A DNA stretch of 64,000 nt from an uncultured bacterium (GTDB lineage Bacteria; Patescibacteriota; JACMRA01): positions 1 to 64,000 of the forward strand of contig CAWAQU010000009.1 of assembly GCA_963784355.1 (NCBI GenBank), in the 5' to 3' direction. Of this stretch, positions 3,682 to 18,647 are shown piece by piece. The notes below the pieces were generated by a model that saw only the letters and a list, made by a program, of their open reading frames with translations, had not been told where the DNA came from and searched no databases. A program made the translations under genes and the position numbers. Within the stretch, counting starts at the first letter, position 1. Every line of letters begins with the position of its first letter.

Positions 3682-3755
3682 TCGGGGATCGTCTAGTGGT
3701 AGGACGACGGGTTTTGGTCCCGTTAACCGGAGTTCGAATCTCTGTCCCCGAACCA
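3682..3755 (+). tRNA. tRNA-Gln(TTG), integration target
   Basis: acceptor tcgggga/tccccga, anticodon arm acggg-tt TTG gt-cccgt, GTTCGAATC, CCA end. Confidence 0.95.
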
Positions 3756-5195
3756 ATGTTGCTTATCAGCATTTTTATACAAAAACAAAAACGGTTTTTT
3801 CAGATTAAATTCAGCTTTTTGGCCTGTTTGAAGTGAGTTCGAAATAAGATATTTCAGAATTTGATTTTTTTCATGTGAATTCGAACTTTTAAATACTTCA
3901 GGTAAACGATTTATTAGATTAAATAGGCTAGAAACGGTTAAATGAAGGTCAGTTGATTCTCTGGTTTCATGGCTCAGTTCAAGATTTAATTCATATATTT
4001 TTGATTCATACTCCTGTTGCTTTTTAGTATAATCATCTTTGGTAATACTACCATCTACAAATAAGTCTGTAAGTCTGGACCGTCTATCCTCAAACTTCTC
4101 TATTTCATTATTTAATTTAATCCGTTGTTGTTTCTGATACAGGCTTTCATTATTGAAATCATTTTTCAGTTTTTCAACTATAAATTCTACGGCTTCACTT
4201 GGAAAAACAAGATTCGTTAAAATATTTTCAGCCTGCTTTAGCAGTACTTCTTCCTTTATTACCTGCTGGTAATATATACAATCTTTATTTATACATCTAT
4301 GGTAATTATAAGTTTGTTTTGCAGTATAGGGATTTATGGTTCTATTGCATTTAGAGCAAGTCAAAAGATTTCTGAAAGGATAAGGTTTAAAACCTCTTTT
4401 TTGTTTTTTGCCTGAGTTCTGGTTTTGATTTAAAATAGCCTGACATTTATCAAAAATAATTTTGGTGGTAAGCGGCTTATAGATATGCCGGTAATTTCCG
4501 TATTTACTTTTAGCTAAGCCATAGTAAAAGGAGTTGTTTAAAGTCTTATTTAAAGTCTGTCTGGTTAGTTTCTTACCCTTGTTTGTTTTAAAGCCCTTCT
4601 TATTCAAATAATCACATAATTCAGCTTGATTGTAGTTTCCTGTCCTAAACAAGTTAAAAGCCTCGGAAATTAGCTCTGATGAGTCTGTTGTATCTACTTG
4701 TCCATTTTGTCTGAAATAGCCTTCAGGAAATTTATATACAATACCTTGTGCACGACTTTCTTTCATTCCTTTTCTGACATGCTTTTTTAGACTATTAACG
4801 TATATTTTAGCGCCTAAAATATACATGTCCCACTGCAAAGAAACTTCTAAAAAGTTATCTTCCCTGACAACCAAAGATTCTTTAATAAAATGAACTTCTA
4901 AATTTTTATTCATTATCATTTTTTCCAGAATTGTACTTTCTTTAAAACCTCTTTGAAGCCTATCAACACAATGGACCACTAAAGCTATAGTTTCTTTTTG
5001 TTTGTGAATAAACTCCAAACACTTATTCAACTCATCTCTTTCATCTATAGTTGCTGACTCCTGAAATTCAAATAATTTAAGTAGTTCGAGCCTGTTTTCT
5101 TTAACATACTTACCACATTCCCGCTTTTGAGCGTCCAAAGATTTGCCCTTGATTTGGTCCTCGCTTGATACCCTGGATAAAATTATTGATTTCAT
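3723..5195 (-). CDS. Large serine recombinase/integrase (integrated-form C-terminus read from tRNA antisense)
   Basis: LSRVSSEDQ catalytic Ser, DRLQR, recombinase domain, CSKC..HRC..C zinc ribbon, coiled coil; ends WFGDRDSNSG inside tRNA-Gln. Confidence 0.95.
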   Translation of the reverse strand: MKSIILSRVSSEDQIKGKSLDAQKRECGKYVKENRLELLKLFEFQESATIDERDELNKCLEFIHKQKETIALVVHCVDRLQRGFKESTILEKMIMNKNLEVHFIKESLVVREDNFLEVSLQWDMYILGAKIYVNSLKKHVRKGMKESRAQGIVYKFPEGYFRQNGQVDTTDSSELISEAFNLFRTGNYNQAELCDYLNKKGFKTNKGKKLTRQTLNKTLNNSFYYGLAKSKYGNYRHIYKPLTTKIIFDKCQAILNQNQNSGKKQKRGFKPYPFRNLLTCSKCNRTINPYTAKQTYNYHRCINKDCIYYQQVIKEEVLLKQAENILTNLVFPSEAVEFIVEKLKNDFNNESLYQKQQRIKLNNEIEKFEDRRSRLTDLFVDGSITKDDYTKKQQEYESKIYELNLELSHETRESTDLHLTVSSLFNLINRLPEVFKSSNSHEKNQILKYLISNSLQTGQKAEFNLKKPFLFLYKNADKQHWFGDRDSNSG

Positions 5196-5590
5196 ATTTG
5201 GTCTACTAAATGCTTAATTTCTTTATCAAAGTCCTTTTTTAATTCACATTCCCATAAAGTTATTACTTTCCAGGTACTGCTTTTAAGCCACTCTTTTGTT
5301 TGTGCATCCCTTTTAATATTGGACATAATTTTATTTTCCCAAAAATCAATTTTAGTACTTGGCAACTTTGATTTCTCACAACCATGCCCGTGCCAGAAAC
5401 ATCCGTTTATAAAAACTGCTATTTTCTTTTTAAGAAAAACTATATCTGGACTTCCCTTTATTTTATAATGGATTCTATATCTAAAACCTTCTGCATATAG
5501 TCGCTTTCTTACCGCCAACTCTAAAGAAGTGTTTTTACTTTTCACTTTTGACATGTTTTTGCTTCTTTGAGCCGGGGTAATTCTATCCAT
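5192..5590 (-). CDS. vsr: Very short patch repair endonuclease
   Basis: RSKNMSKVKSKNT..E, GSPDIVF, FINGCFWHGH, WECE. Confidence 0.96.
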   Translation of the reverse strand: MDRITPAQRSKNMSKVKSKNTSLELAVRKRLYAEGFRYRIHYKIKGSPDIVFLKKKIAVFINGCFWHGHGCEKSKLPSTKIDFWENKIMSNIKRDAQTKEWLKSSTWKVITLWECELKKDFDKEIKHLVDQI

Positions 5591-6675
5591 TACTTAAATC
5601 TTATTTGGAGTGATAAATCAAAATAAATTTTATTGTTTGTAAATCTAAATGAGCCGTATTTATGCCTTGAAGATGACGGACTTTCAAAGTATACCGATTT
5701 TAAAAGATAGTCTTTAAACTGATCTTGATTATAAACATGATAACAGACTATCTCACCATCTTCTTTAACTATTAAATATCCGCCATAAACCTCATCATAG
5801 CCTGTCCAAACTTTGCCTGGACTCATTCCAAGAGCTGAAGCCCAAAGTAGGTTCTTTATTTTAAACTCATAGTCTTCCTTTTCAAGATCTAGATCTGAAA
5901 GTAGCTTACAAAATTTAGGGTCTATGGTAATGTCTGAAATAGTGCGTTTATTTGAAATATAAGAGTATTTTAGAAGTTCAGCCGTTATTTTATCCATAGC
6001 AGTGTCAATACGTCTCAAATTCTTCCTGAAAGTATCGGATTCTACTTTTTCAAATTCCAGACTTCCGCCTTTATCATATAGTGATTTTACTCTATCAAGG
6101 ACCTTAGCTTTTGTTTGTATCTGATTAATTTCTTCAGCTGTACTTTCACTAATTCCTTTAACTTCATAAACTATCCTGGTATGGTCAGAGGCGTTTAATA
6201 AGGTTGCATTACCCCCTAATTGTGATTTAATACTAAATCCCACAGTTTGATTTGTGTTTACTGTTATATCGTGAATAACAAGGGTAATATCGGATTTGTT
6301 TTGTGAAGCAGATTTTACAGTAGTGCAGTTTAGATTTTTAAATGCATCTTCAATATTATCTATTGATATAGTTCCGTTTTCGGACTCTTTTATACTTTTC
6401 AGCACATTTAATGCAGTATTTTTTAACTTGCTCCTAGAAATGTAATCTTTAAAAGTATTAGTAGAATTTTTAATAATTACTTCTGTTTCTTCAATTGTAT
6501 AAATAGTATCAGGTTTTTGTGCTTCAGACCTTAAAATTTGAAAAATTGGATAAACTATATCCTCTAAAGCTTTAAGGTTTTCGTCTGCACCATGTACCTT
6601 ACCATCTGCAAGTAATTTTACTAATGTATAAAACTCGCTCCATTCGCCTCTGTTTGCTGAAATTATTTTATTCAT
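5590..6675 (-). CDS. HpaII-family type II restriction endonuclease
   Basis: NRGEWSEFY..KLL, KSDITL, GFSIKSQLG..TLLNAS, LGMSPGKVW.G, FESPSSSRH, LSLQIRF. Confidence 0.88.
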   Translation of the reverse strand: MNKIISANRGEWSEFYTLVKLLADGKVHGADENLKALEDIVYPIFQILRSEAQKPDTIYTIEETEVIIKNSTNTFKDYISRSKLKNTALNVLKSIKESENGTISIDNIEDAFKNLNCTTVKSASQNKSDITLVIHDITVNTNQTVGFSIKSQLGGNATLLNASDHTRIVYEVKGISESTAEEINQIQTKAKVLDRVKSLYDKGGSLEFEKVESDTFRKNLRRIDTAMDKITAELLKYSYISNKRTISDITIDPKFCKLLSDLDLEKEDYEFKIKNLLWASALGMSPGKVWTGYDEVYGGYLIVKEDGEIVCYHVYNQDQFKDYLLKSVYFESPSSSRHKYGSFRFTNNKIYFDLSLQIRFK

Positions 6676-6677
6676 AA

Positions 6678-7742
6678 TTAAATTAAATCCAAACTGCTTA
6701 AAATTTGTTTTGCAGTGGCTTGAATTGCAGGAACTGCTACACTGTTTCCCAATTGCTTCATTGCTTGTGTTTCTGAAACTGGCATTATAAATCCTTTAGG
6801 AAAGCCTTGCATTTCCAAACCTTGTTTAGGATTAAGCCTTACTTCCACGCCATCAACAATATAACAATCCCAATTTCTTCTGTCATTTACCCCAGAACCT
6901 CGCCCCCCAACTCTTAGTGTGTAACCAACATTTTTCTTACATTCTCCCCCTAAAATATCTGACATAGTTTTTTTTAATGGTGTAGGATCTGGCCATTTAA
7001 AAGGTTTTAGTTCATTTTTAAATCCAACCATAAATAATCTTGGCCTGTGCTGGGGTACACCATAATTATCAGCTTTTATAACTTTATAATAAAATGAGTA
7101 ACCTAAATCTTCAGTTACAACTTTTTTTATTACCTCAAATGTTTTGCCATTATCATGGTTAAACAAACCCCTAACATTTTCAAGAAAAATTGCTTTTGGC
7201 TGCTTTTCCTTAATTATTTTTGCTATATCAAAGAAGAGCGTACCTCTAGTATCTCCAAAACCCTTTTTAAATCCTGCATTGCTGAAAGGTTGACACGGAA
7301 AACCTGCACAAAGAATATCGAAATCAGGAATTAGCTTAGGATCTTGTTTTGTAATATCCTGGTTAAAATTGCCAGACTCAAACAGTTCTTTTTCGTCTTC
7401 ATAAAAATTTGCCATGTATGTAAGTCTTGCAGACTCATTAATTTCACTTGCAAATACGCACTGTCCTCCTAGGTTTTTAAAAGCAATGTGGAAACCTCCT
7501 ATTCCAGCAAACAAGTCAATAAACTTAAATTTTGTTTCTCTTATCTCTTTTACAGGGTTATAAAACAGACTTTGCTCTTTTAGTGTATAAATGAAATTTT
7601 GAAGATTGCTTGTATCGATACGGTATTCTCTACCTATTTTATAAGCCTGTATTTTTTTCGACTTAATATATCTTCTTATGGTTAAATCACTTAAATTAAG
7701 CTGTTTTGCAACTTCACCAACTGTATAATAATTTATGTTCAT
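6678..7742 (-). CDS. DNA cytosine-5 methyltransferase with N-terminal excisionase-like HTH
   Basis: YTVGEVAKQL..TIRRYIK..AYKIGREYRI HTH, then DLFAGIGG, GFPCQPFS, ENV, QHRPR, QLGNSVAV. Confidence 0.95.
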   Translation of the reverse strand: MNINYYTVGEVAKQLNLSDLTIRRYIKSKKIQAYKIGREYRIDTSNLQNFIYTLKEQSLFYNPVKEIRETKFKFIDLFAGIGGFHIAFKNLGGQCVFASEINESARLTYMANFYEDEKELFESGNFNQDITKQDPKLIPDFDILCAGFPCQPFSNAGFKKGFGDTRGTLFFDIAKIIKEKQPKAIFLENVRGLFNHDNGKTFEVIKKVVTEDLGYSFYYKVIKADNYGVPQHRPRLFMVGFKNELKPFKWPDPTPLKKTMSDILGGECKKNVGYTLRVGGRGSGVNDRRNWDCYIVDGVEVRLNPKQGLEMQGFPKGFIMPVSETQAMKQLGNSVAVPAIQATAKQILSSLDLI

Positions 7743-7750
7743 AAAAATAA

Positions 7751-7781
7751 TTATATATCAATATATATCAACATCTATCAA
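7751..7781. promoter_or_regulatory. Three 10-bp-period direct repeats over the MTase promoter
   Basis: ttatatatca/atatatatca/acatctatca; minus-strand TATAAT 7 nt before the ATG. Confidence 0.55.
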
Positions 7782-8888
7782 TTATTTGTCAAATCTCAGC
7801 TCTTTGTCAATATCCTCAAACCAACCAAAACAATCTTGTATATCTGTAGCTTGATTGATTTTTTCAAGTTCTTTGACAAATCTGGACCAGTTTTTACCAT
7901 TCAGCTTTTTTTCATAAATTTTTCTAAGCTCTGACAGCCCTTTCTCTTTTGCTAGAGTATTTACACCAATTAGTCTAAAAAGTTCGTTAGCTTTGATTTT
8001 TGAGTAGCTTGTTAGCAGCCTATCAATAAGTAAATCAGATTTGTTAATTTTATTAAATAAAAATCTATTTTTATCTACAATCAAATTTTGCCAGTAGTGG
8101 TTTATGAGTTTTTTCCAAAGTAATTCACTAAATAAATCTTCAAAATATAAAATATCTATTTGGAATCCTAGCTTGCCTAATACTTGCCTCATCTTTGCCT
8201 TATTTCTTAACCTTATTTCAAATCTGATTATTTCTTGTTTTTGATTGTCATTGTATTCTTGAAACAAATCTTTTTGTAGGTCATTTCGGTCATTGTCTAC
8301 AGCTCTTTTGTTTGGTTTGTTTAGGTCCGCCAGTTTGTCATAAATTACAAAACTATGGGCTTTTGAATAAAACTGTAGAGTTGTACCCGTACCTTCTCTA
8401 TATTCTTTATTATCAAGATCTAATCTTCTATCTAAGGTACACTTATTCAATTCTTGGATAATTTGAAAACTGAAGTAGCCTTTGCTTAGAAATATGTTTT
8501 TGGCTGTATCAAATCCTGAAACTTCAAATTTGGCTGGATTTTCTTTTAACTCAACACCCATTTCTAAAAGCCTTTGATAAACAAACTTGTAAACAAACTT
8601 ATCATCAAAAATACTTAGCTCATTTAGATTGTTTCCATAAATCAACTTGGGAACTGAAAACTCTATTTTCAAATCTCTTTTTGGACCAAAATCCACTCCT
8701 TTACTTCTTGGTGTAATAGTTAGTCTAGGATAATATTTATCTACGGTTTTAAAATTATTTACAAAACTTTTTCCTACAAAACCATGTCTGTAAAGATTTT
8801 CAGCATTTGGACTAAATAAGTCTGGTTTGTTTATCCTATATTCTGCCTCTTTTACCGTTAATATCACTGTATCTAACATATCCATCAC
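7782..8888 (-). CDS. Phage/plasmid-type replication initiation protein
   Basis: MLDTVIL, LKIEFSVPKLIYGNN, D..KN, FVIYDKL, IIRFEIRL motifs resembling gene II/X-like rolling-circle Reps. Confidence 0.75.
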   Translation of the reverse strand: MMDMLDTVILTVKEAEYRINKPDLFSPNAENLYRHGFVGKSFVNNFKTVDKYYPRLTITPRSKGVDFGPKRDLKIEFSVPKLIYGNNLNELSIFDDKFVYKFVYQRLLEMGVELKENPAKFEVSGFDTAKNIFLSKGYFSFQIIQELNKCTLDRRLDLDNKEYREGTGTTLQFYSKAHSFVIYDKLADLNKPNKRAVDNDRNDLQKDLFQEYNDNQKQEIIRFEIRLRNKAKMRQVLGKLGFQIDILYFEDLFSELLWKKLINHYWQNLIVDKNRFLFNKINKSDLLIDRLLTSYSKIKANELFRLIGVNTLAKEKGLSELRKIYEKKLNGKNWSRFVKELEKINQATDIQDCFGWFEDIDKELRFDK

Positions 8889-9162
8889 ATTTTTTATAAA
8901 CTTTATTAAGCTCTTTAGTCACCACATTTTCAATATAGCTACCTACCTCCTTATTTATAGGGTAAAGTATGCTAGTTTCTTTACTTCCAACTATCTTACT
9001 TGGGTAAACTAGCCTGTATAGATTTTGGTTATTTAGCCTTGTATACACAGCTATAGAAGATACAAAAAGACTTTCGTTTAAAACAAAGCTGGCAAAGGCC
9101 ACTAAACCGTTTTTAGGTTTGACCGGTATTATTTGAATTTCGGATATACTTATTTGATTCAT
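8836..9162 (-). CDS. SpoVG-like nucleic-acid-binding protein
   Basis: ISEIQIIPVKPKNGLVAFASFVL..SIAV..LVYP..YPINKE. Confidence 0.8.
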   Translation of the reverse strand: MNQISISEIQIIPVKPKNGLVAFASFVLNESLFVSSIAVYTRLNNQNLYRLVYPSKIVGSKETSILYPINKEVGSYIENVVTKELNKVYKKCDGYVRYSDINGKRGRI

Positions 9163-9187
9163 AACTTTTTGAATTGGCTTGATTAAG

Positions 9188-9346
9188 TTATAGTTTATAA
9201 TTTTCAGGGTTATTTCTCATGTCTATTTCAATCAGCAACTTAAATAAACCTAACAAAGAGTCTTGATCCTCTTTTTCCCATAACTTAGGATCAGAGGCTT
9301 GTAGCTCTAATTTTGACTTGATTAAATTTGCTTGACTTTCAGACAT
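9188..9346 (-). CDS. Small 52-aa hypothetical protein of the element (not in ORF track)
   Basis: MSESQANLIKSKLELQASDPKLWEKEDQDSLLGLFKLLIEIDMRNNPENYKL; first gene of the small ORF-SpoVG-Rep unit. Confidence 0.7.
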   Translation of the reverse strand: MSESQANLIKSKLELQASDPKLWEKEDQDSLLGLFKLLIEIDMRNNPENYKL

Positions 9347-9394
9347 TAAAAAATCCCTAGAATTTATAACTAGGGATACTATAAAATAATTATG

Positions 9395-9434
9395 TGCTTA
9401 AACTTGCTTAAAAATGCTGAATTTTGCTGAAAGC
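9395..9434. promoter_or_regulatory. Four tandem TGCT(T/G)AA repeats at 10-bp period (candidate activator boxes)
   Basis: starts at 9395, 9405, 9415, 9425; adjacent inverted repeat ATCCCTAG..CTAGGGAT at 9353-9377. Confidence 0.6.
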
Positions 9435-9447
9435 TATCTATGAGGCT

Positions 9448-10386
9448 TTATTTTATGTATTTTTCATTTATATAAACGTGATCAGATTTTACTGTTAAAA
9501 AGTCTTTAATTTCAGGCGGTAAATTTCTTCTAAGATAGTAAAATGAGTCTTTACATTTTTTAATGGCATCTTTTTTATTCAGTTCTTCAGGATCATCCAT
9601 TTCTAGCAATTCCGAATAGTGCCAAACCTTTTTCATATTGCTCTTATTTTTGGTTATTATGCCTAAACTCCTATGGACAAAACCCCTTGCAAGTGTTCTT
9701 TGATAATTCCCTACAAATAAAGTAGCAATTTTTGAGTCATAACTAAAATAAGCAGTTTGGTCTGTTTGTAAAGTAGTAGTCATCTGTGTGCTTATGGAAA
9801 GCTTAATATCATTTTTATCCAGAATCACACCAGCATAGGTGTTAGTAAGCCTTTGGTAATCTTGTTCAGGTACAGCGACTAGTTTGTATTTCTTGCCTTC
9901 TTTTTCAAATGTTTGATAAACTTCTAGGCCGTTTTCAGTTACCCCTTCGTCTAATTCAACTACAAGTTGTCTATGTTCGTTATAATCTTTTCTAGCGTAT
10001 TGAAAATCAAATTTTAGGCCTAAAATATCAGCTTTAAAAGATACTAGTGTTTGTGTCCATTGCTTGGAGATTTGCTCTAAAACAGAGTAGGAGTTTATAG
10101 ATTGTGATATTAATTTTAAATAATCTGTTCTAAATTGTATCTGTGCTTGAATGAATGGGTTTATTATATCAGTCATTTTTGGTATTGCAGCCAAAAAGTC
10201 TGCATTAATTGCAGTAATAAAGTTTAAAGACTTATTTAAGTTACTTAAACTATTTAGATCAAACGAATTCAAAGCCTTTTTTGCTTGTAATGTGGCAATT
10301 TTAGCTGTTTGTTTTGCCAATATTGATTGTCCAATCAATGAAGTCTCTTGTGCATTAGTAGATGAAATACTATCGTTGTCAGACAT
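9448..10386 (-). CDS. Hypothetical protein with probable C-terminal winged-HTH
   Basis: 312-aa ORF; C-terminus WHYSELLE..KDSFYYLRRNL..FLTVKSDHVYIN has a helix-helix-hairpin pattern. Confidence 0.55.
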   Translation of the reverse strand: MSDNDSISSTNAQETSLIGQSILAKQTAKIATLQAKKALNSFDLNSLSNLNKSLNFITAINADFLAAIPKMTDIINPFIQAQIQFRTDYLKLISQSINSYSVLEQISKQWTQTLVSFKADILGLKFDFQYARKDYNEHRQLVVELDEGVTENGLEVYQTFEKEGKKYKLVAVPEQDYQRLTNTYAGVILDKNDIKLSISTQMTTTLQTDQTAYFSYDSKIATLFVGNYQRTLARGFVHRSLGIITKNKSNMKKVWHYSELLEMDDPEELNKKDAIKKCKDSFYYLRRNLPPEIKDFLTVKSDHVYINEKYIK

Positions 10387-10551
10387 GCTTTTAAAATCAC
10401 ATTTTAGATAATTACAATCTATAAATTTTTATTTTGCAAATTAAAGCAGTTGTAAAACATTTGTATGCAGTATTTTATATTATAATCTCAGTTTGCCATT
10501 ACTTATTTTATGATATAAACTAGTCAAATTTATAAATATAAACAAAAAAAT

Positions 10552-10950
10552 ATGTCTGATTTAGAATTGAAAAACTTTACTGATATAATATTTTTAGGTG
10601 ATATCACACCTTTAAATGAATCACTTGCTGATTTAGCAATACAAAAACTTCGAATATTTATTCCAGAAGTATTTGTAACAACTTTATTTCAGAGATTTAA
10701 TAGTGGAAATATAGGAAATTTTATTAGTGAATTAGAATCCAGCAAAACATCACTTAAAGATATTTTACTTATTAAATTATTTGTATCTGATAATTCAAAT
10801 TTACTCATTCCTAGAAATAACATCAACATAATTGATTTGATGCTGTTTAACGAAAAAATCAAACAACTTCAAACTGAGGCAAAATCCTTTTTAGCTGCTG
10901 AAAATCCTGTTGTGCAACAGCATGGGCAAATAATTGAGCTTCAGAAATAG
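10552..10950 (+). CDS. Hypothetical protein
   Basis: 132-aa ORF with ATG after a promoter-like TTGCCA..TGATAT; tail overlaps the opposite gene. Confidence 0.55.
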   Translation: MSDLELKNFTDIIFLGDITPLNESLADLAIQKLRIFIPEVFVTTLFQRFNSGNIGNFISELESSKTSLKDILLIKLFVSDNSNLLIPRNNINIIDLMLFNEKIKQLQTEAKSFLAAENPVVQQHGQIIELQK

Positions 10951-11563
10951 TAACACTGGAGGCAATACTAGAGGCAAAGCTTAATTTACTTTCTGACTCA
11001 AAATTAATATCATACGAACTATAATATATAGTTTTAGTTATAATGCTTTGATAAAAAATAAGCAAGCTGGTATACTTACCCTTCACTTTGGTTTGTAGTA
11101 TAGTATCGTTATCTATAGGTAATAAACTGTAATCTTTTACTTTATACCAGTTATTATTATCAAAAACATAAGCTTGTATTTTAATCGCATCTACTTCACC
11201 AACATTTTTTACAATTATCTGTCTTAATTCCTCTTTAATAAAAAATATATTTCCACTTTCTATATTTTCAGGTATTATAATTTTCGGACGACTAAATTCT
11301 AGAGATTTTTTACTTAGGTCTTTTGCTTGTTCAGAAATCTTATTTGCTTGCCAGGCCAGTCTAATCGTTAACAAAGACAGTGCAAATGTAGCAATTAGAT
11401 TAAAGGGATCAATTTGATAACCGGCAATTTTAGTTATGCTTATATACAATCTATGAAGCAGAGGTATAAAATTTATTTTTTCCAGTATAAGAAAAAGTAA
11501 AATTATTGAAACCGATATTCTCCACCAATATTTGGTTATCGAATATATTATGTTTTTGCTCAT
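10859..11563 (-). CDS. Hypothetical membrane protein
   Basis: two N-terminal hydrophobic segments, then ANKIS and a beta-rich domain (IIVKNVGEVDA). Confidence 0.7.
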   Translation of the reverse strand: MSKNIIYSITKYWWRISVSIILLFLILEKINFIPLLHRLYISITKIAGYQIDPFNLIATFALSLLTIRLAWQANKISEQAKDLSKKSLEFSRPKIIIPENIESGNIFFIKEELRQIIVKNVGEVDAIKIQAYVFDNNNWYKVKDYSLLPIDNDTILQTKVKGKYTSLLIFYQSIITKTIYYSSYDINFESESKLSFASSIASSVTISEAQLFAHAVAQQDFQQLKRILPQFEVV

Positions 11564-11711
11564 AGATTTAAATTATTACAGATTAAGGGTACTTTCCAAT
11601 TATGTAAAGCAATAAAAAATCTAGTAAAAATTCATATACTAAAATTACAAATAGTTGAAGATGTTATTTTTGAAAAAGCTTATTAATTTAAGCAAACTTA
11701 ACCATTAGATA

Positions 11712-11813
11712 TTATTCTACCAAATTCATTTCTAGTATATTAAATATTTGGCTAAAAGTTTTTTCAAAGTCAGACCAATTATAAGTTCGAAGTGTGTCAA
11801 TAACGGTGAACCA
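11712..11813 (-). other. Displaced integrase C-terminal coding segment (attP-derived arm)
   Basis: reads WFTVIDTLRTYNWSDFEKTFSQIFNILEMNLVE-stop, in frame with the integrase WF codons at the shared GAACCA core. Confidence 0.75.
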
Positions 11814-11846
11814 AAAACAAAAACTCAATTTATCTTAATTCTCATT

Positions 11847-11870
11847 ATCTCGGTTAATCGCCGGGATTTT
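11847..11870 (+). terminator. Hairpin terminator, probably the original tRNA-Gln terminator
   Basis: ATCTCGG-ttaatcg-CCGGGAT plus T run, 33 bp after the right att core. Confidence 0.5.
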
Positions 11871-11914
11871 ATCTTGTCTAATTTGATTAAATTTTCTATA
11901 CAAATAATAACGAT

Positions 11915-12442
11915 ATGTCTGAAAGTTTCAATAATATACCTAAAAATCCTGAAAATACTTTTTACACAGTTGAACAAGCAAAACAAGTATTTAGTTGGGT
12001 AGTAGAGAAAGCTAAAAAAGATAATATTTATAAGCTTTGTGCAAATCCGGTGATTATTAAGGATAACAAAGTATTGATATTTCAGAGGCCTGCCACTAGT
12101 CCAAATAGACCAAATGGTTGGCTTTTACCTGGTGGAAAAGTAGAGGAAGGTGAGAATGTAGTTGATGCTTTAGTTAGAGAAACAAAGGAAGAGTTAAATT
12201 TAGATGTTGTAAAAATAAGACATCTTCCAATTGAATTTGACAGTATATTTAAAGGAAATTTGTGGAGAGTAGTCTATTTTGTAGTAGAAATCACTGGAGA
12301 AATGAAGTTAGAAGAAAGAGCTTTATCTAATCCAACTTTTATCAGCAAACCTGAAATTCCAAATTATTTCACTCAAGCAGAAATGGACCCCAGTTCACCG
12401 GACTACAGAGGTGGAGAGCTATCAGTTTGGGATTATGTATAA
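11915..12442 (+). CDS. NUDIX hydrolase
   Basis: PGGKVEEGENVVDALVRETKEELNL Nudix box. Confidence 0.92.
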   Translation: MSESFNNIPKNPENTFYTVEQAKQVFSWVVEKAKKDNIYKLCANPVIIKDNKVLIFQRPATSPNRPNGWLLPGGKVEEGENVVDALVRETKEELNLDVVKIRHLPIEFDSIFKGNLWRVVYFVVEITGEMKLEERALSNPTFISKPEIPNYFTQAEMDPSSPDYRGGELSVWDYV

Positions 12443-12507
12443 GTTTGGGATTGGGCCAATTTAGTCCTTAATGCTATTAAAAATGAAATTTTACAAGACA
12501 TAGATTG

Positions 12508-13323
12508 TTAGAACAGATTCTTAATTATTTTTGTTACACCATTAATCATATCTTCTGCATCTTCAGCAGTTGGCTCTGTTATTTTTTTATGATCACAATT
12601 ATTTCTAATATCCGCTAAGTGTTGAATTTTTCTAAAGATTTGAATATCAATAATTTTGTTACTGTATAAAATATCATTATAATTACTGATTGTAGGATTT
12701 TTTTTGAGAGTTAGCAAATGATTTTGACAAACTTGATTAAGGTGACTCTCTAAAACTACCCCTGCCAACGCTCCAGCCGCTCTTGAAAAACCATTTTCAT
12801 TTAAATATTTTGCAGCATCTAACTCAGAATCAAACAAATCAGCTCTAACAAATTGTTGAATATTAAAAAGTGAACTTTCAAATCTTTTTCTAACAGATTT
12901 TAAAATTGCTAATTGTTGTTGAAATTTTGGAAATGCTGAAGATTTTCCAGCAACAACAGCACCATTTGTGGTTTTAGATAATGTAATGTTGCTTAAAGCG
13001 TCCGCAATTACATAGTTAGTTGAATCTATGTCTTGCATACTTCTCCTTTTTGCTGGCACCTCATAATATTCTACAAAATCATCTAATCGATCAGGTAACA
13101 TTAACTTAATTATTGTCTTTGCTTCAGAATACCACTCTTGGTATTCACTTTTGAAATCAGGTAGACTAGAAATAAATTTATCCTCCTCTTTTTTATTTTT
13201 TAGTTTAAGTGCTTGTAAAAAATCTACTTTTGGTACAATTTCGTAGAGTAGAGCATTTTGTAATTTTTTACCTTTTAATATTAACTCTTCCAAATCTTTT
13301 TTATATACATCCAAATTAGACAT
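12508..13323 (-). CDS. HEPN-domain protein (putative RNase/defence)
   Basis: RAAGALAGVVLESHL helix and R-x4-H motif RNNCDH. Confidence 0.7.
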   Translation of the reverse strand: MSNLDVYKKDLEELILKGKKLQNALLYEIVPKVDFLQALKLKNKKEEDKFISSLPDFKSEYQEWYSEAKTIIKLMLPDRLDDFVEYYEVPAKRRSMQDIDSTNYVIADALSNITLSKTTNGAVVAGKSSAFPKFQQQLAILKSVRKRFESSLFNIQQFVRADLFDSELDAAKYLNENGFSRAAGALAGVVLESHLNQVCQNHLLTLKKNPTISNYNDILYSNKIIDIQIFRKIQHLADIRNNCDHKKITEPTAEDAEDMINGVTKIIKNLF

Positions 13324-13580
13324 AAAAATTGTTTATTCTATTTAAATAGTTTCTTACAATCTTTTAAACTATGTTTGAGAATTACAGCCATAGGATAATA
13401 AGTTTTTATACTCATGTTGCAGTAATTAAGCTTTTTTAAGTATCAATTGTCAAACCTTATTTTATTGGTTTTTCTAAGTTTTTCAAATTTGTATCTGTTT
13501 ATTTTCTTTTCAACAAAAGCTCTTGTAAAGAGTAAAAAAATATGCTATAAATAAATAACCGACAAATAAGAGGTAAAAAG

Positions 13581-13814
13581 ATGGGTATTCAAGGTTACTT
13601 CCGCCTGGCAATGATTTCCTATGCGGTTTTTATGCTAGGCCTCGTGTACTCTCTATTCTTAATACCAAATGGTATTATTGATGGAAATAGCCATGGAATA
13701 ATCATGGAGACACTAAAAGAAGATTGTAGTTTCATGGTAATTGCAGGGTTAGTCCTTTTTGCATACTGCATATTAGCTATGGGATTTGTTTCTGAGCGAA
13801 ACCGCCATAGATAA
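13581..13814 (+). CDS. Small 2-TM protein
   Basis: TTGTAA-17-TATAAA promoter, AGAGGT RBS, two hydrophobic helices, own terminator. Confidence 0.7.
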   Translation: MGIQGYFRLAMISYAVFMLGLVYSLFLIPNGIIDGNSHGIIMETLKEDCSFMVIAGLVLFAYCILAMGFVSERNRHR

Positions 13815-13837
13815 TACACAGACATTTGTTATCGGTT

Positions 13838-13871
13838 GCACCTTTTGTTTTTTTGCGAAGGGTGCTTTTTC
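13838..13871 (+). terminator. Intrinsic terminator
   Basis: GCACCTTTTG..CGAAGGGTGC stem followed by T5. Confidence 0.75.
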
Positions 13872-14173
13872 TGTAAAGTTGATCAGACTATTTTTTTAAT
13901 AACAAGAATTTTGGTAGTCTTCTCTTTATGTGTCCATCATTTCAACCATTTACGTACCGAGATTTAGTGCAGCAAACGGGTTTTACCCAGTAATAAATTT
14001 ACTGAATTATATTTTGTGGAAACCCTACAATGTTTTGTAGTTTTTTATAATCTCAATCAAAAATTATTATTAGTTGATAGTATAAGCTAGGGGGCCATAG
14101 CAAATAATTGCTACCAGTTTTTGGTAATTATTGAGCTTTGCTTTAATGGATTTTTTAGTAGCTGGATCACTTG

Positions 14174-14587
14174 TCAAAGCATTCCTGTTTTCTTCAACAA
14201 ACTTTCAAATTTCTTCTCCCGTTTAATATATTGGTCTATATTTGCAAAATACTTAGCTGCATTCTTTTGTTCTTCTTCAATATTCACAGTGTTTTTTATA
14301 TAACCACACCTCGTACAATACCATGGTAGCATACCTGGAGGTGATTCAAAAAGAGATTTGAACCAAAAATTATCTTTTTCATAAGACAAAATCATATGAG
14401 CACAGTAATTTTGAATTTTCAATTTCAGTTTTTGATCACGCCTTTCCAGATATTTGTTCCAATCAAAGGTAATGCTGATTTTAAAAGCAAAAATACTAAG
14501 TAGGGCTAAGAAAATTAATAAGATGACATGCCCTATTGTTAATTGATCCAGTCTGGTATTAATTACGCTATTATACAAATCATTCAT
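14174..14587 (-). CDS. Hypothetical membrane-anchored protein with CxH..CxxC
   Basis: one TM helix, then CAH and CTRC possible metal ligands. Confidence 0.65.
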   Translation of the reverse strand: MNDLYNSVINTRLDQLTIGHVILLIFLALLSIFAFKISITFDWNKYLERRDQKLKLKIQNYCAHMILSYEKDNFWFKSLFESPPGMLPWYCTRCGYIKNTVNIEEEQKNAAKYFANIDQYIKREKKFESLLKKTGML

Positions 14588-14944
14588 AAAGTTTATTCGT
14601 TAACATTGTTGCGGTTCGCTCCAAACCCTCTATTTATTCACATTTGATTGTTATTTAATATTATTAATATCTATGTTTTTTTGCTTCCAATCTTAGTTTT
14701 TTCTAAAGTTCTTCCTCTTAATATTAGAGCAATTCATTCTCTTTAATCATGGTTTGTCAAATTTTGGGACGCTATTAATTTACCCAAGGTACCTATAATA
14801 TTATATCTTAGACATGTTATATAAGCTTAACTTACAAATGTTGTAATATATTATAGTAGAACTTCATCTCCACACTAAAATTTCTGAGCCCTTGACAAAA
14901 GCCCATATGATGCTAACATTTAAGCCATTTCTAAATATAAGCAT

Positions 14945-15433
14945 ATGACAAACCAAACTGTAGATTTAGACAAACTAGCCGCTTTTCCGGACCAAACCAA
15001 AGAAGATGTAGCCAAAACATTGGCATCTACTCTAGAAAAAATGCCTGCTGCGGCCATAGAAGAAAATTATTTGGAAGTCGGGGTGAGACCTTGGGGGGTT
15101 TATTATGTTTTGGAGGATAAGCCAAGCTATAAAGTCAAGAAAATCTTGGTAAATCCAGGTCATAGACTAAGTTTACAGAGCCATAAACACCGCTCGGAGC
15201 ACTGGGTTGTTGTTACAGGAACTGCTAGCGTAGAAATTAGAGACAACACCAAACCTGAAACTGATTGGAATTTTGACCTACATCCAAACGAAAGTTGCTA
15301 TATTAAAGTAGATAACATCCACAGGGTTGCTAACCATGGTAAAATTCCTCTAGTTTTTGTTGAAGTCCAAGTAGGGGAATATACCGGGGAAGATGACATT
15401 GTCAGATATGAAGATGACTACGCCAGAACTTAA
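14945..15433 (+). CDS. Phosphomannose isomerase type II C-terminal cupin protein
   Basis: RPWG.Y, LSLQSHKHRSEHWVVV, EVQVGEYTGEDDIVR. Confidence 0.93.
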   Translation: MTNQTVDLDKLAAFPDQTKEDVAKTLASTLEKMPAAAIEENYLEVGVRPWGVYYVLEDKPSYKVKKILVNPGHRLSLQSHKHRSEHWVVVTGTASVEIRDNTKPETDWNFDLHPNESCYIKVDNIHRVANHGKIPLVFVEVQVGEYTGEDDIVRYEDDYART

Positions 15434-15444
15434 ATTATATTAGG

Positions 15445-16584
15445 ATGAAAAAAGTACTAATACTAGGCTCCGGAGGACATGGTTGGGAAAGTTTATCTGA
15501 ATTCTTTGACTCTAACAATAACCAAATAGATTTATATACACTTACATCGGACTGGGGTGGCTTTACAGGCACTTTTGGTAGATTGATGGAGGTCGATAAT
15601 GGTATAGTAAATCAAAAATTGCATAAAAAAATTCTTCCTATTTTACCTTGGGGGGATCTAAATAAAATTATCACTTTTTATACTAGCTTGAGATTCGGTA
15701 CAAATGTCGGCCAAACTTTAAATTTTAGGAGCTTCCACATTTACGAAGTTTTACAGGAGTTTGAGATTTTAAGCGATTTTTTGGCTTTAGAACACAGTGT
15801 AATCAAGCATTTTGAAGAATATTTACATGAGTTTTATAATTTATTTGGAGAATATCAACATAAAATTGATCTGATTAAAGCGCCATGTCTAGGCAATCTT
15901 TGGCAACAATATCTATTTTGGCAATTGGATAATATAGAAAGTTGGAATGAGTTTTATCGCTACAAAAATATCCTTCCACAAAATCTGCATTTAAATTTTA
16001 CAGCAGATCAAAGACAGGTTTTAACTGCCCAAACTAGTGATAGTTCAAAAATTATAGGAGAAGAAATTATTGATGTGAGTGAGGTTCCTATCTTACCTGA
16101 AAGCTTAAATTTAGTAAATCTTGATGAACAAAAATCTGAGCTAGAAGAAAATTTATTATCAAAATTAAGATCTGCAGATTGTGTTATTATACCAAACGGG
16201 TCAGTAGCTAACTGGATACCACTTCTAAATAATACTGAAATTTTGGATATTATAAAACACAAAAAACTTATTTGGATTTTGAATCTTTTTCACACTCAAA
16301 ATGAACTTAATATTTCTAAATATTTGGAATATACTGCATCCCTAGGCTTAAACCCTAGCATACTAGCTCCTAAAAAACTACCTCCTGAAGTACCTACAGA
16401 AATTTTAAATCATTATAACCTCGAAAATAAAGTCTTGAACTTTAAATCTGTAGAGGAAATAGACCAAGTTAAGTCAATTGGACTAAATATTAAGTTTGAG
16501 CTGGATTATCAAGTAGACAGTTCTTTCAAATACAGCAAGGCTAGTATTAAGCAGTCAATTTTAAATATATTACATGAATCATAA
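15445..16584 (+). CDS. Divergent YvcK/CofD-family protein
   Basis: VLILGSGGHG, TSDWGGFTG, WGDL, LGNL, IIGEEIID, ADCVIIPNGS. Confidence 0.7.
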   Translation: MKKVLILGSGGHGWESLSEFFDSNNNQIDLYTLTSDWGGFTGTFGRLMEVDNGIVNQKLHKKILPILPWGDLNKIITFYTSLRFGTNVGQTLNFRSFHIYEVLQEFEILSDFLALEHSVIKHFEEYLHEFYNLFGEYQHKIDLIKAPCLGNLWQQYLFWQLDNIESWNEFYRYKNILPQNLHLNFTADQRQVLTAQTSDSSKIIGEEIIDVSEVPILPESLNLVNLDEQKSELEENLLSKLRSADCVIIPNGSVANWIPLLNNTEILDIIKHKKLIWILNLFHTQNELNISKYLEYTASLGLNPSILAPKKLPPEVPTEILNHYNLENKVLNFKSVEEIDQVKSIGLNIKFELDYQVDSSFKYSKASIKQSILNILHES

Positions 16585-17551
16585 AATCAGGTTACACAAA
16601 CAAATAACAGACAATTTGAAACAACTTGATGAACTTGATTACACAAATCCGGAAATTCAAAGGAATATTGAAAATTATGGTGTTTATGTAGATGGAGTTT
16701 TAGTAAATAACCGCTTATCTTGGGTGTATTTGGAAAATACGTTAGATATACATCATTGGCCCAAAAGACAATCCGGAAATTTCGATGAGGTAAAAATATT
16801 GAGTGAAACTGAGGATTATTTAGCTATTTACAAACCAATGGGAGTAGTTGTTGAAAGTGGGGCCGGACATCAAAAAGATAACCTCTTAAATTGGTTAGAA
16901 ACCCAGTATAAATCTAGCTTTTTCTTGATCCACAGATTAGACAAGGATACACAGGGAGTCATGCTGATTGCTAAAAACGAAAAAACTCTAAATTTTTACC
17001 AAGATCAGTTTAGAAATAGAGAAGTTGTAAAAAAATACTTCGCTGTCGTGGGAAAACCTGTGGATAACTTGTGGACTATTGAAAACTGGCAATCACGTGA
17101 TAGGTCTAATCCCCTGAGACAAAAACTTTTTTGGAGTGAGACTAAGGCCATGGAATACGACTCCAACTCACGCCTAGCTAAATCTGTCATCAGACCAAGA
17201 ATAATCTGTCAGGCAACTGGTCAAAGCTTGATTGAAGTAGAGATAAAAACCGGAAGGATGCACCAAATTAGGCTTCAATGCGAGGCTCTGGGCTTTGGAC
17301 TGGTTAATGATAGGGTTTACAATCAAATGATAAAACCAACTGAACTCAACCAAAGTACAACTCACATAATCCCTAACTATAGCATAATTAACAAGAATTT
17401 GCAAGAATTTGAATACATCAAGAAGGTAATCTTTGGACAAACTGAGTATTGTCTTTTATCGAACTACCTCAAAGTCAAAACGCCTGATAATGGTTGGTTG
17501 GAAATCGAATACAGGAATTTGAAGGATTTGCTAGGTACATTTGAATCTTAA
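16574..17551 (+). CDS. RluA-family pseudouridine synthase
   Basis: YKPMG, HRLDKDTQG, TGRMHQIR. Confidence 0.93.
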   Translation: MNHKIRLHKQITDNLKQLDELDYTNPEIQRNIENYGVYVDGVLVNNRLSWVYLENTLDIHHWPKRQSGNFDEVKILSETEDYLAIYKPMGVVVESGAGHQKDNLLNWLETQYKSSFFLIHRLDKDTQGVMLIAKNEKTLNFYQDQFRNREVVKKYFAVVGKPVDNLWTIENWQSRDRSNPLRQKLFWSETKAMEYDSNSRLAKSVIRPRIICQATGQSLIEVEIKTGRMHQIRLQCEALGFGLVNDRVYNQMIKPTELNQSTTHIIPNYSIINKNLQEFEYIKKVIFGQTEYCLLSNYLKVKTPDNGWLEIEYRNLKDLLGTFES

Positions 17552-17618
17552 TGGTAAATACAACCTGGTAACTCAATAAAAATGAGATAATTGTAACCTA
17601 TAATATTTAAAATACTTA

Positions 17619-18647
17619 TTAAAACAAAGCTTCAGGTTCGTTACTTTCAATAGCAATTTTGGAAACTGAGTTTAGTAGTGATTTGAAATTAAATCTTTGA
17701 AAATCATCCGATCCGGCATTTAAGTCATAGCCTAAATGGCTATAGTCGGTATCTGGAACCATCTGCAAGGTACCTAAATAATAAGTTTGTTTTAGCAATT
17801 CGAAATTGTCCTTTATTTTTTCAATCAGTGGAGTATTTTTGGGATTGGCTATGTATTTTTTTGCTCCATCAAGACCAATATTTAGATTGCAAAATCCTAT
17901 ACTTTCAATATCAAGTACTGTAAATAAATTATACAAGCAACCGACTTCCTGAAGAATTTTAGTGGCGGTTTTGGGGCCAACACCTGGAATACCTTTCAAA
18001 TTATCTGAAGTATCACCTACCAAAGCTTTGTAATCCAGCCACTGTTCCGGCATCAATTCATATTTTTTTATAAAATCATCTTTCCCAAACAAAACCCAGC
18101 CGTCTTTAAGTGCTTTTGATTGCACAAAGTAAATTTGCGGGTGATTTAATAACTGGTACAAATCTCTATCTGAAGACAAAATCAGGATTTTTTCACTTGA
18201 CTCAGTATTTATATTTTTAGGAGTGCTTGAATTAACCACATTAAACAAATCACCATCTACTTTAACCTCAGCTTCTAGAACATTTTCTTTCAAAATTTTT
18301 TTACAGACCGTGAAAATATAATCGTCAGCCTCATACCCCTCCTCAGAAAAATTATTTTTACTGATTTTCTTTGTCCAATCTTTAATCAAAGGGATTTGAA
18401 CCAACATATCATCTTGGATTGGTGGTCTATTGGCTTTGTAGTCCAGTAAAATTTTGTGTCTCCAAGTAGGCTTAGGAGTATCGTTGGTAAAGACCAGATC
18501 ATCGGGTTTATATTCGTGGACTAAGGCTAGTATAGTTTTGGCAAAACCAAAGAATGCACCCGTCGGAATATCTTGACTAACCAGAGTAGGATATGCAAAA
18601 AAAGACCTATATATGAGGTATGAAGTGTCGATAACTAGCGTCGTCAT
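17619..18647 (-). CDS. Stand-alone 5'-3' exonuclease (PolA N-terminal-like)
   Basis: YKANR, GYEADD, SSDRDLYQL, GDTSDNLKGIPGVGPKTA; no polymerase domain. Confidence 0.92.
   Translation of the reverse strand: MTTLVIDTSYLIYRSFFAYPTLVSQDIPTGAFFGFAKTILALVHEYKPDDLVFTNDTPKPTWRHKILLDYKANRPPIQDDMLVQIPLIKDWTKKISKNNFSEEGYEADDYIFTVCKKILKENVLEAEVKVDGDLFNVVNSSTPKNINTESSEKILILSSDRDLYQLLNHPQIYFVQSKALKDGWVLFGKDDFIKKYELMPEQWLDYKALVGDTSDNLKGIPGVGPKTATKILQEVGCLYNLFTVLDIESIGFCNLNIGLDGAKKYIANPKNTPLIEKIKDNFELLKQTYYLGTLQMVPDTDYSHLGYDLNAGSDDFQRFNFKSLLNSVSKIAIESNEPEALF

Follow-up and report, generated by a model that had tools for sequence, protein, structure and literature searches.

Serine integrases are leading tools for large DNA insertion, and target choice is the limiting question in their use. 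The Ccr recombinases of SCCmec are large serine recombinases (LSRs) whose cargo islands integrate at the 3′ terminus of a single conserved housekeeping gene, rlmH/orfX, where tandem and composite arrays form; we know of no T-loop box and no recombinase gene spanning its own attachment (att) site in that system. Here, we analyzed a 64,000-nucleotide stretch of DNA from an uncultured bacterium (Patescibacteriota; JACMRA01), positions 1 to 64,000 of contig CAWAQU010000009.1 in assembly GCA_963784355.1 (hereafter the window), in which an LSR appears to have inserted an 8,058-bp HpaII-type restriction-modification element not at rlmH/orfX, as in SCCmec, but into the extreme 3′ end of a tRNA gene, tRNA-Gln(UUG).

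The closest described enzyme is the A118/LI integrase. As laid out in the half-site description of Rutherford et al. 2013 (PMC3783163), the zinc-ribbon domain (ZD) of LI integrase recognizes a 9-bp motif that occupies half-site positions 16-24 in attP and 11-19 in attB, that is, 5 bp (half a turn) toward the centre in the latter. These positions agree with the premise of a preliminary description of the window, namely that the ZD motif lies about 5 bp further out in attP. Like A118/LI in the Rutherford-Van Duyne model, the system in the window combines a catalytic domain, a recombinase domain (RD), and probably a ZD with a coiled coil, with a short att identity and a 7-8-bp box placed 5 bp further out in attP. 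It differs from the LI scheme, and is new relative to it, in that the target is a tRNA 3′ end instead of a protein-coding gene, the putative ZD box is the universal T-loop, the box is present in the left half-sites only, and attP lies within the integrase gene; the sequence similarity between the two is also remote.

Two further systems share single features with this locus. Insertion at tRNA 3′ ends is more usually the work of tyrosine integrases, and for these systems PMC8092301 gives 25-76 bp of attB/attP identity that rebuild the tRNA 3′ end. The window shares with these the target region, a tRNA that is intact after insertion, and, among relatives, tandem arrays at one tRNA; in contrast, the enzyme here is a serine recombinase, attB and attP share 6-12 bp, and the T-loop copy is not colinear but displaced. 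In mycobacteriophage integration-dependent immunity, as outlined in the same source (PMC8092301), attP lies in the 3′ part of the repressor gene, and bacterial sequence sometimes supplies the last residues. Here too, attP lies in the 3′ part of an element gene and integration would alter the C-terminus of its protein; however, what is split is the serine integrase gene itself and not a repressor gene in a tyrosine integrase system.

We propose that strand exchange takes place within GAACCA (tRNA positions 71-76). In attB, the LSR subunit on the left half-site would place its ZD on the tRNA T-loop box GTTCGAA, and in attP it would place it on an identical, element-borne box, displaced from the crossover by a further 5 bp or half a helical turn. 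A displacement of this kind is how serine integrases are known to distinguish attP from attB and to fix the reaction direction, and it would do the same here. Recognition would be modular, consisting of a universal anchor, the T-loop box, that is constant across the family, and a tRNA-specific proximal part, in which the crossover-proximal bases (acceptor end, discriminator, and CCA) vary with the target tRNA. A T-loop box read by the ZD, with an LI-type +5 displacement, is the explanation that we favor, at slightly better than even confidence, and the ZD is the presumed reader of the box.

On the forward strand, the 8-mer AGTTCGAA occupies 3731-3738 in tRNA-Gln, followed by GAACCA at 3750-3755, and 11784-11791 at the right end, followed by GAACCA at 11808-11813. 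The offset from box to GAACCA is therefore 19 bp in tRNA-Gln versus 24 bp at the right end, matching the 5-bp displacement between the arms that had been claimed for these positions. GAACCA comprises the last two acceptor bases, the discriminator, and the encoded CCA of tRNA-Gln, and the common core is really 7 bp long (GAACCAA, 3750-3756 and 11808-11814). Two relatives bear on the element boundaries: G008, the best homologue, with an integrase 66% identical to that of the window and likewise tail-to-tail with a tRNA-Gln, and L040, a metagenome contig with a 63% identical integrase. Window positions 11743-11815 match the right end of the G008 element at 89% identity, ending just after GAACCAA, and the homology between L040 and the window also ends after GAACCAA; in both cases, the outer flank is unrelated. 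Because homology to both relatives stops at this point, the integrated element is delimited to 8,058 bp, from 3750 to 11807, with one core copy counted, and the boundary given in the preliminary description is thus upheld without using the motif. The features of the att sites and the integrase are as follows:

3682-3755, plus strand: tRNA-Gln(UUG), the putative integration target (attB left arm and core; ARAGORN; Rfam RF00005, 61.1 bits)
3723-5195, minus strand: LSR (integrase) gene, 490 aa as integrated (Pfam, alignment, and profile match)
3731-3738, plus strand: B-arm box AGTTCGAA in the T-arm (G53-T54-T55-C56-G57-A58 region), 19 bp before the core
3750-3756: attL copy of the core GAACCAA (tRNA positions 71-76 plus 1; from the comparison with G008 and L040)
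3757-3800, plus strand: P′ arm, encoding the integrase C-terminal region on the minus strand, with no T-loop-like box at the mirrored position
11784-11791, plus strand: P-arm box AGTTCGAA, starting 24 bp ahead of the core and unchanged in the elements of G008 and L040
11808-11814: attR copy of the core GAACCAA, where homology with related elements ends
11815-12442, plus strand: B′ arm and chromosomal flank, including a NUDIX gene (11915-12442), not conserved with the flanks of G008 and L040

The right-flank DNA gave no usable match in 40 related genomes, hence no empty attB could be aligned. No close relatives were found in the genome-contig and viral-contig collections, and metagenome contigs gave two loci, one of which is a 1.1-kb fragment.

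A 7-bp hairpin lies directly 3′ of the tRNA in the P′ arm (window 3755-3775; L037 8973-8993) and was not seen in L040; it shows a compensatory difference between the window and G008. The hairpin is weak (−4.2 kcal/mol, z −1.3 in the window; −5.4, z −1.8 in L037; a third value of −1.5, z −0.5), and a terminator hairpin after the tRNA was set aside as support on these energetic grounds. An exact 13-bp direct repeat, CAAAAACAAAAAC (3780-3792 and 11812-11824), has one copy within the P′ arm and the other in the chromosomal flank. Taking this repeat for the true ends, with the tRNA and hairpin as native DNA, was ruled out: homology with G008 and L040 reaches GAACCAA, and their right flanks lack the 13-mer. 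The repeat is probably an A-rich coincidence.

The integrase is predicted to be an LI-type LSR, remotely related to solved structures. Pfam places a Resolvase domain (PF00239; E 9e-17) at residues 4-151 and a Recombinase domain (PF07508; E 6.9e-10), which aligns to the LI RD, at residues 171-258. In a 22-sequence alignment of the family, R8, S10, C280, C283, C301, and P468-F469 are invariant, and the 22-sequence profile matches the C-terminal domain of the A118/LI integrase (4kis_A) with an E value of 2.7e-15 over profile positions 172-469, covering the RD, ZD, and coiled coil. For the putative zinc ribbon, Pfam gave no Zn_ribbon_recom match at E ≤ 0.01; however, the three zinc-ribbon cysteines (C280, C283, and C301) are invariant, and the alignment of the family profile extends through the ZD and coiled coil of LI as far as chain residue 317. 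A single-sequence phmmer search of the integrase against the PDB gave no match.

The 8-mer AGTTCGAA is remarkable by position, not by count. The four copies in the window (3731, 3836, 3880 on the minus strand, and 11784) all fall no more than ~140 bp from an end of the element, and only 15 copies occur in the entire 1.14-Mb genome. With 1.46 copies expected in the window and four reached in 9 of 100 shuffles, and with a core of only 6-7 bp, the coincidence of box and core could be put down to chance in an AT-rich genome, without function. To examine recurrence across relatives, 32 loci were oriented, 17 (the window, G008, L040, and 14 distant homologues) and a later set of 15, and scanned for recurrence, within the putative element, of any 6-mer drawn from the final 10 nt of the tRNA and the 3 nt that follow it, with a T-loop-like box up to 48 nt upstream, the shift of the box being scored against the tRNA. 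For exact GTTC[GA]A in the 17 loci, a shift of +5 was found at 10 sites in six loci, and any other shift at two sites at most. The reverse strand gave no +5 shift among six sites, and 100 Markov sets gave a mean of 0.19 loci with a maximum of 2. In the second set of 15 loci, the exact box was found at +5 at two sites, at −7 at two sites, and at 14 and 22 at one site each, with none at +5 on the reverse strand. When one mismatch to GTTCGAA was allowed, +5 was found at 27 sites in 17 of the 32 loci and any other single shift at no more than three sites, again with none at +5 on the reverse strand; three of the 27 sites look like false positives with a short core identity. Motif and offset are therefore kept together in 17 of the 32 loci, which is the opposite of the loss among homologues named beforehand as evidence against the proposal. 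Deviating offsets were also found, with CTTCGAA at +4 in L053, two sites at +6 in L046, and one at +6 in L050. The three tRNA-Gln elements represent one lineage, and the integrases of L042, L046, L050/L072, L059, L055, L066, and others are 25-35% identical to that of the window. Chance is highly improbable in view of a box and offset kept in two elements with 63-66% identical integrases and in distant relatives, and of six loci at +5 in the strict scan against 0.19 at random.

A P arm that is a degenerate copy of the tRNA 3′ end with a 5-bp insertion was considered and rejected, as the 16-nt spacer of the window is unlike the 11-nt tRNA spacer and has no T-stem pairing. In L042, by contrast, the crossover-proximal 17 nt match the tRNA at 14 of 17 positions (by eye).

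The position of the crossover was approached through the identity between attL and attR, which in 24 of 27 family sites takes in tRNA positions 71-76 as a minimum and measures 6-12 bp overall. The left edge of this identity lies at −6 (seven sites), −7 (seven), −8 (nine), or −9 (one), and the right edge coincides exactly with the CCA end in 13 sites; beyond positions 71-76, identity reaches up to three bases to the left and up to five to the right. Because 24 of the 27 identities span positions 71-76, the crossover is placed, on comparative grounds, inside these 6 bp (GAACCA). With the crossover at the left end of the core (GA, 3750-3751), GTTCGAA would occupy half-site positions 13-19 in B and 18-24 in P, and the outer limits would equal the 19 and 24 of LI. 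The B′ flanks of the three close elements are mutually unrelated, and we infer that recognition is largely one-sided, involving the left half-sites B and P only.

Several points weigh against a T-loop box read by the ZD at an LI-type displacement: (i) no +5 site was found in 15 of the 32 loci, at least five of which (L043, L047, L057, L060, and L063) are short and cut by a contig end. (ii) All of the lineages share one ancestor, so the recurrence of box and offset represents constraint and not repeated invention. (iii) If the crossover were at CC or CA, the boxes would lie 3-4 bp further out than in LI. (iv) In the lineage of the window, B and P agree at only 4 of the 11 positions between box and core; therefore, a shared RD site is not evident. 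(v) In canonical LSR sites, each of the four half-sites carries a ZD motif, whereas no TTCGAAC-like box was found at the mirrored positions of B′ or P′, just as the preliminary description had seen no clear matching motif in the right-hand arms. (vi) A second tRNA-Gln gene (CUG; G000 contig C12, complement of 161291-161364) matches the occupied gene throughout its 3′ half, T-loop box and GAACCA included, and is unoccupied, which is at odds with simple one-sided targeting. (vii) The P-arm box overlaps a reading frame and varies synonymously there, its hydrophobic codon ending in T at 13, in C at five, and in G at two of 20 sites; the conservation of the P arm across the family and its fixed spacing can thus be partly protein-level.

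This last point concerns the excised form of the element, in which one more feature is predicted:

11712-11813, minus strand: open frame extending the integrase open reading frame (ORF) in the excised (attP) form, WFTVIDTLRTYNWSDFEKTFSQIFNILEMNLVE followed by a stop (translation; peptide conserved in relatives)

As integrated, the integrase ORF crosses attL into the tRNA, and its last 11 codons are tRNA-derived, with W from the CCA and DSN from the T-loop (reverse complement). In the circular form, the frame stays open for 33 codons past the core, running through the P arm, and would translate the box, in reverse complement, as L-R-T. The tail of the window runs L-R-T-Y-N-W..., that of relatives F-R-T-x-D-W...Y-P, and the relatives encode W-L-x5-[FL]-R-T-x-D-W-x4-Y-P without gaps. 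In L034 (G395), where two tandem elements meet in an attP-like junction, an intact ORF carries the full tail peptide. Integration is therefore predicted, from these frames, to swap the C-terminus of the integrase. With such an overlap, the P-arm box might be kept only as coding sequence for the integrase tail, its likeness to the T-loop and the +5 offset being a coincidence in an ancestor that protein constraint then fixed. Read in reverse complement, AGTTCGAA (xTT-CGA-ACT) does spell F/L-R-T in the circular-form ORF, and the long open frame, the gap-free peptide, and the intact ORF of L034 all fit such a history. The same is true of the apparently synonymous variation at the box (TTT/TTC; CGA 7, AGA 9, CGG 1) and of the conserved D-W, which lies outside any plausible LSR footprint.

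Codon usage at the box points the other way. A hidden Markov model of the peptide, which is blind to codon choice, retrieved 20 distinct sites at E ≤ 1.1, 10 of which had not been used as seeds. At the Arg position, the codons were CGA at seven sites, AGA at nine, CGG at one, and GGA (Gly) at two; among the 10 non-seed sites, they were AGA 6, CGA 2, GGA 1, and AGC 1. The codon opposite the 'TC' of the box ends in GA in 18 of the 20 sites, while its first base varies, even to Gly, which is the reverse of what protein-only constraint would leave. CGT, CGC, and AGG, which make up 40% of the Arg codons in long ORFs of these loci, are absent from this position; ACT accounts for 12 of the 17 Thr codons at the box, compared with a background share of 0.33; and CGA, only 5% of Arg codons in the genome of the window, is nevertheless used at its box. 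Because this pattern is unlike protein-only constraint, and because such constraint does not explain why the tripeptide is written with the T-loop 7-mer at the offset predicted for an LSR, we read the P-arm box as a probable DNA signal that the overlapping frame must accommodate. Retention for the protein tail alone seems rather unlikely to us.

The remaining two copies of the 8-mer, which the preliminary description had overlooked, are located within the integrase gene and form an inverted pair:

3836-3843, plus strand: internal box AGTTCGAA, left half of the inverted pair, over codons I-S-N of the minus strand (Asn453 codon conservation)
3880-3887, minus strand: internal box AGTTCGAA, right half of the inverted pair, over codons S-S-N (Ser437 codon conservation)

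The boxes are separated by 36 bp, with an outer span of 52 bp, and lie 86-137 bp from the core; with this arrangement, GTTC falls at half-site positions 22-25, matching a symmetric attP-type site in spacing. For Ser437, 18 of 19 homologues use AGT, a codon with a share of 0.21 among Ser codons, and for Ser438 the codon is TCG in 12, TCT in six, TCA in one, and AGC in one. Asn453 is AAC in all 22 homologues (AAC share, 0.43), and the residue before it varies (S, Q, R, or T) with the third base G kept in 20 of 22. All remaining conserved columns of S, N, R, D, F, Y, or T have mixed codons, for example, five codons at the catalytic S10 and nine AAC and nine AAT at N162. The conservation at the two boxes indicates that RGTTC behaves as a nucleic-acid signal in this integrase system, whichever protein surface reads it, and DNA recognition is favored over chance because the two internal RGTTC boxes are held at synonymous sites.

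The same boxes lie outside a normal att site, and they could be taken to mean that the RGTTC boxes are genuine nucleic-acid signals other than ZD motifs, read by another factor, by another integrase domain (as an operator or accessory site), or at the RNA level, with the +5 offset being secondary. The excisionase-type HTH_17 domain of the methyltransferase encoded by the element would suit a second DNA-binding factor. However, the P-arm and B-arm boxes sit where the ZD motifs of attP and attB are expected, nothing links another protein to the boxes, and Rfam finds only tRNAs at these positions. We consider a signal of this other kind quite unlikely, and recognition of the two arm boxes by the ZD remains the explanation that we prefer.

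The integrase belongs to a family with homologues (E ≤ 1e-20) in 148 of 401 sampled genomes of the phylum (0.5-2.0 Mb each), and the loci examined here were drawn from 49 of the 148. Of the 29 best homologue loci, 20 have a tRNA gene next to the 3′ end of the LSR gene in tail-to-tail orientation (seven Asn, five Gln, four Trp, and one each of Ser, Glu, Asp, and Gly/Phe), and three of the remaining nine keep an integrase tail encoded by a T-arm ('...DSN...'). In a second set of 20 regions, a tRNA was called in 10, and a T-arm plus CCA was present in five more. The T-loops of the targeted tRNAs (n = 32) were TTCGA in 28 cases, TCCGA in three, and TTAGA in one, with no case of TTCAA, which is the T-loop of 13 of the 41 tRNAs in the host genome. 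This is only suggestive of a family preference for tRNAs with a TTCGA T-loop, as few tRNA types are involved. No covariation of the unusual T-loops (TCCGA and TTAGA) with the P-arm boxes was seen among cases that are too few to judge.

Tandem copies of the P arm plus core were observed downstream of one tRNA-Asn in two loci, five in L042 (G324:C2, oriented 9614-17736) and four in L046 (G095:C1, 16610-19659), and in G395:C1 (L069/L034), a second full element with its integrase lies behind the first, at an attP-like junction. These copies look like tandem accretion through repeated insertion into attL, as would be expected if attL, with its B arm and core, can act as a target again.

A broader scheme would combine these observations as follows: (i) a phylum-wide LSR family uses the T-loop as a one-sided ZD anchor, and its lineages hop between tRNA species by retuning the proximal contacts; (ii) the C-terminal tail swap and the inverted pair, as an accessory integrase site, act together as a switch for directionality and autoregulation, without a separate recombination directionality factor. 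In this full form, the scheme is speculative, and we regard it as unlikely. If the T-loop box is read as proposed, the system would represent a natural modular design, in which one domain reads the invariant T-loop and proximal contacts choose the tRNA, and which could be copied or reprogrammed. It would also explain the spread and stacking of small restriction-modification elements at tRNA genes in very small genomes. A literature search, which was not exhaustive, found nothing linking a serine integrase to tRNA T-loop recognition, and no description of elements of this type in phyla with small genomes. An integrase gene that spans att, and inverted boxes conserved at synonymous sites, point to a form of regulation that was not found described for this enzyme class in the literature searched.

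The rest of the element consists of the restriction-modification cargo and a small number of other genes:

5192-5590, minus strand: Vsr endonuclease (Pfam Vsr, 3.6e-29)
5590-6675, minus strand: HpaII-type restriction endonuclease (Pfam RE_HpaII, 8e-104)
6678-7742, minus strand: C5 cytosine methyltransferase with an N-terminal HTH_17 (DNA_methylase, 2.5e-80; HTH_17, 6.2e-11)
7782-8888, minus strand: Rep-like protein (weak Phage_CRI match, 1.1e-4)
8836-9162, minus strand: SpoVG-like ORF (SpoVG, 2.2e-6, under the gathering score)
9448-10386 (minus strand), 10552-10950 (plus strand), and 10859-11563 (minus strand): three ORFs without a family

The Rep-like gene overlaps the SpoVG-like ORF (7782-9162, minus strand), and the element may replicate after excision. 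The HTH_17 domain on the C5 methyltransferase is of the excisionase type and could regulate either the restriction-modification system or excision.

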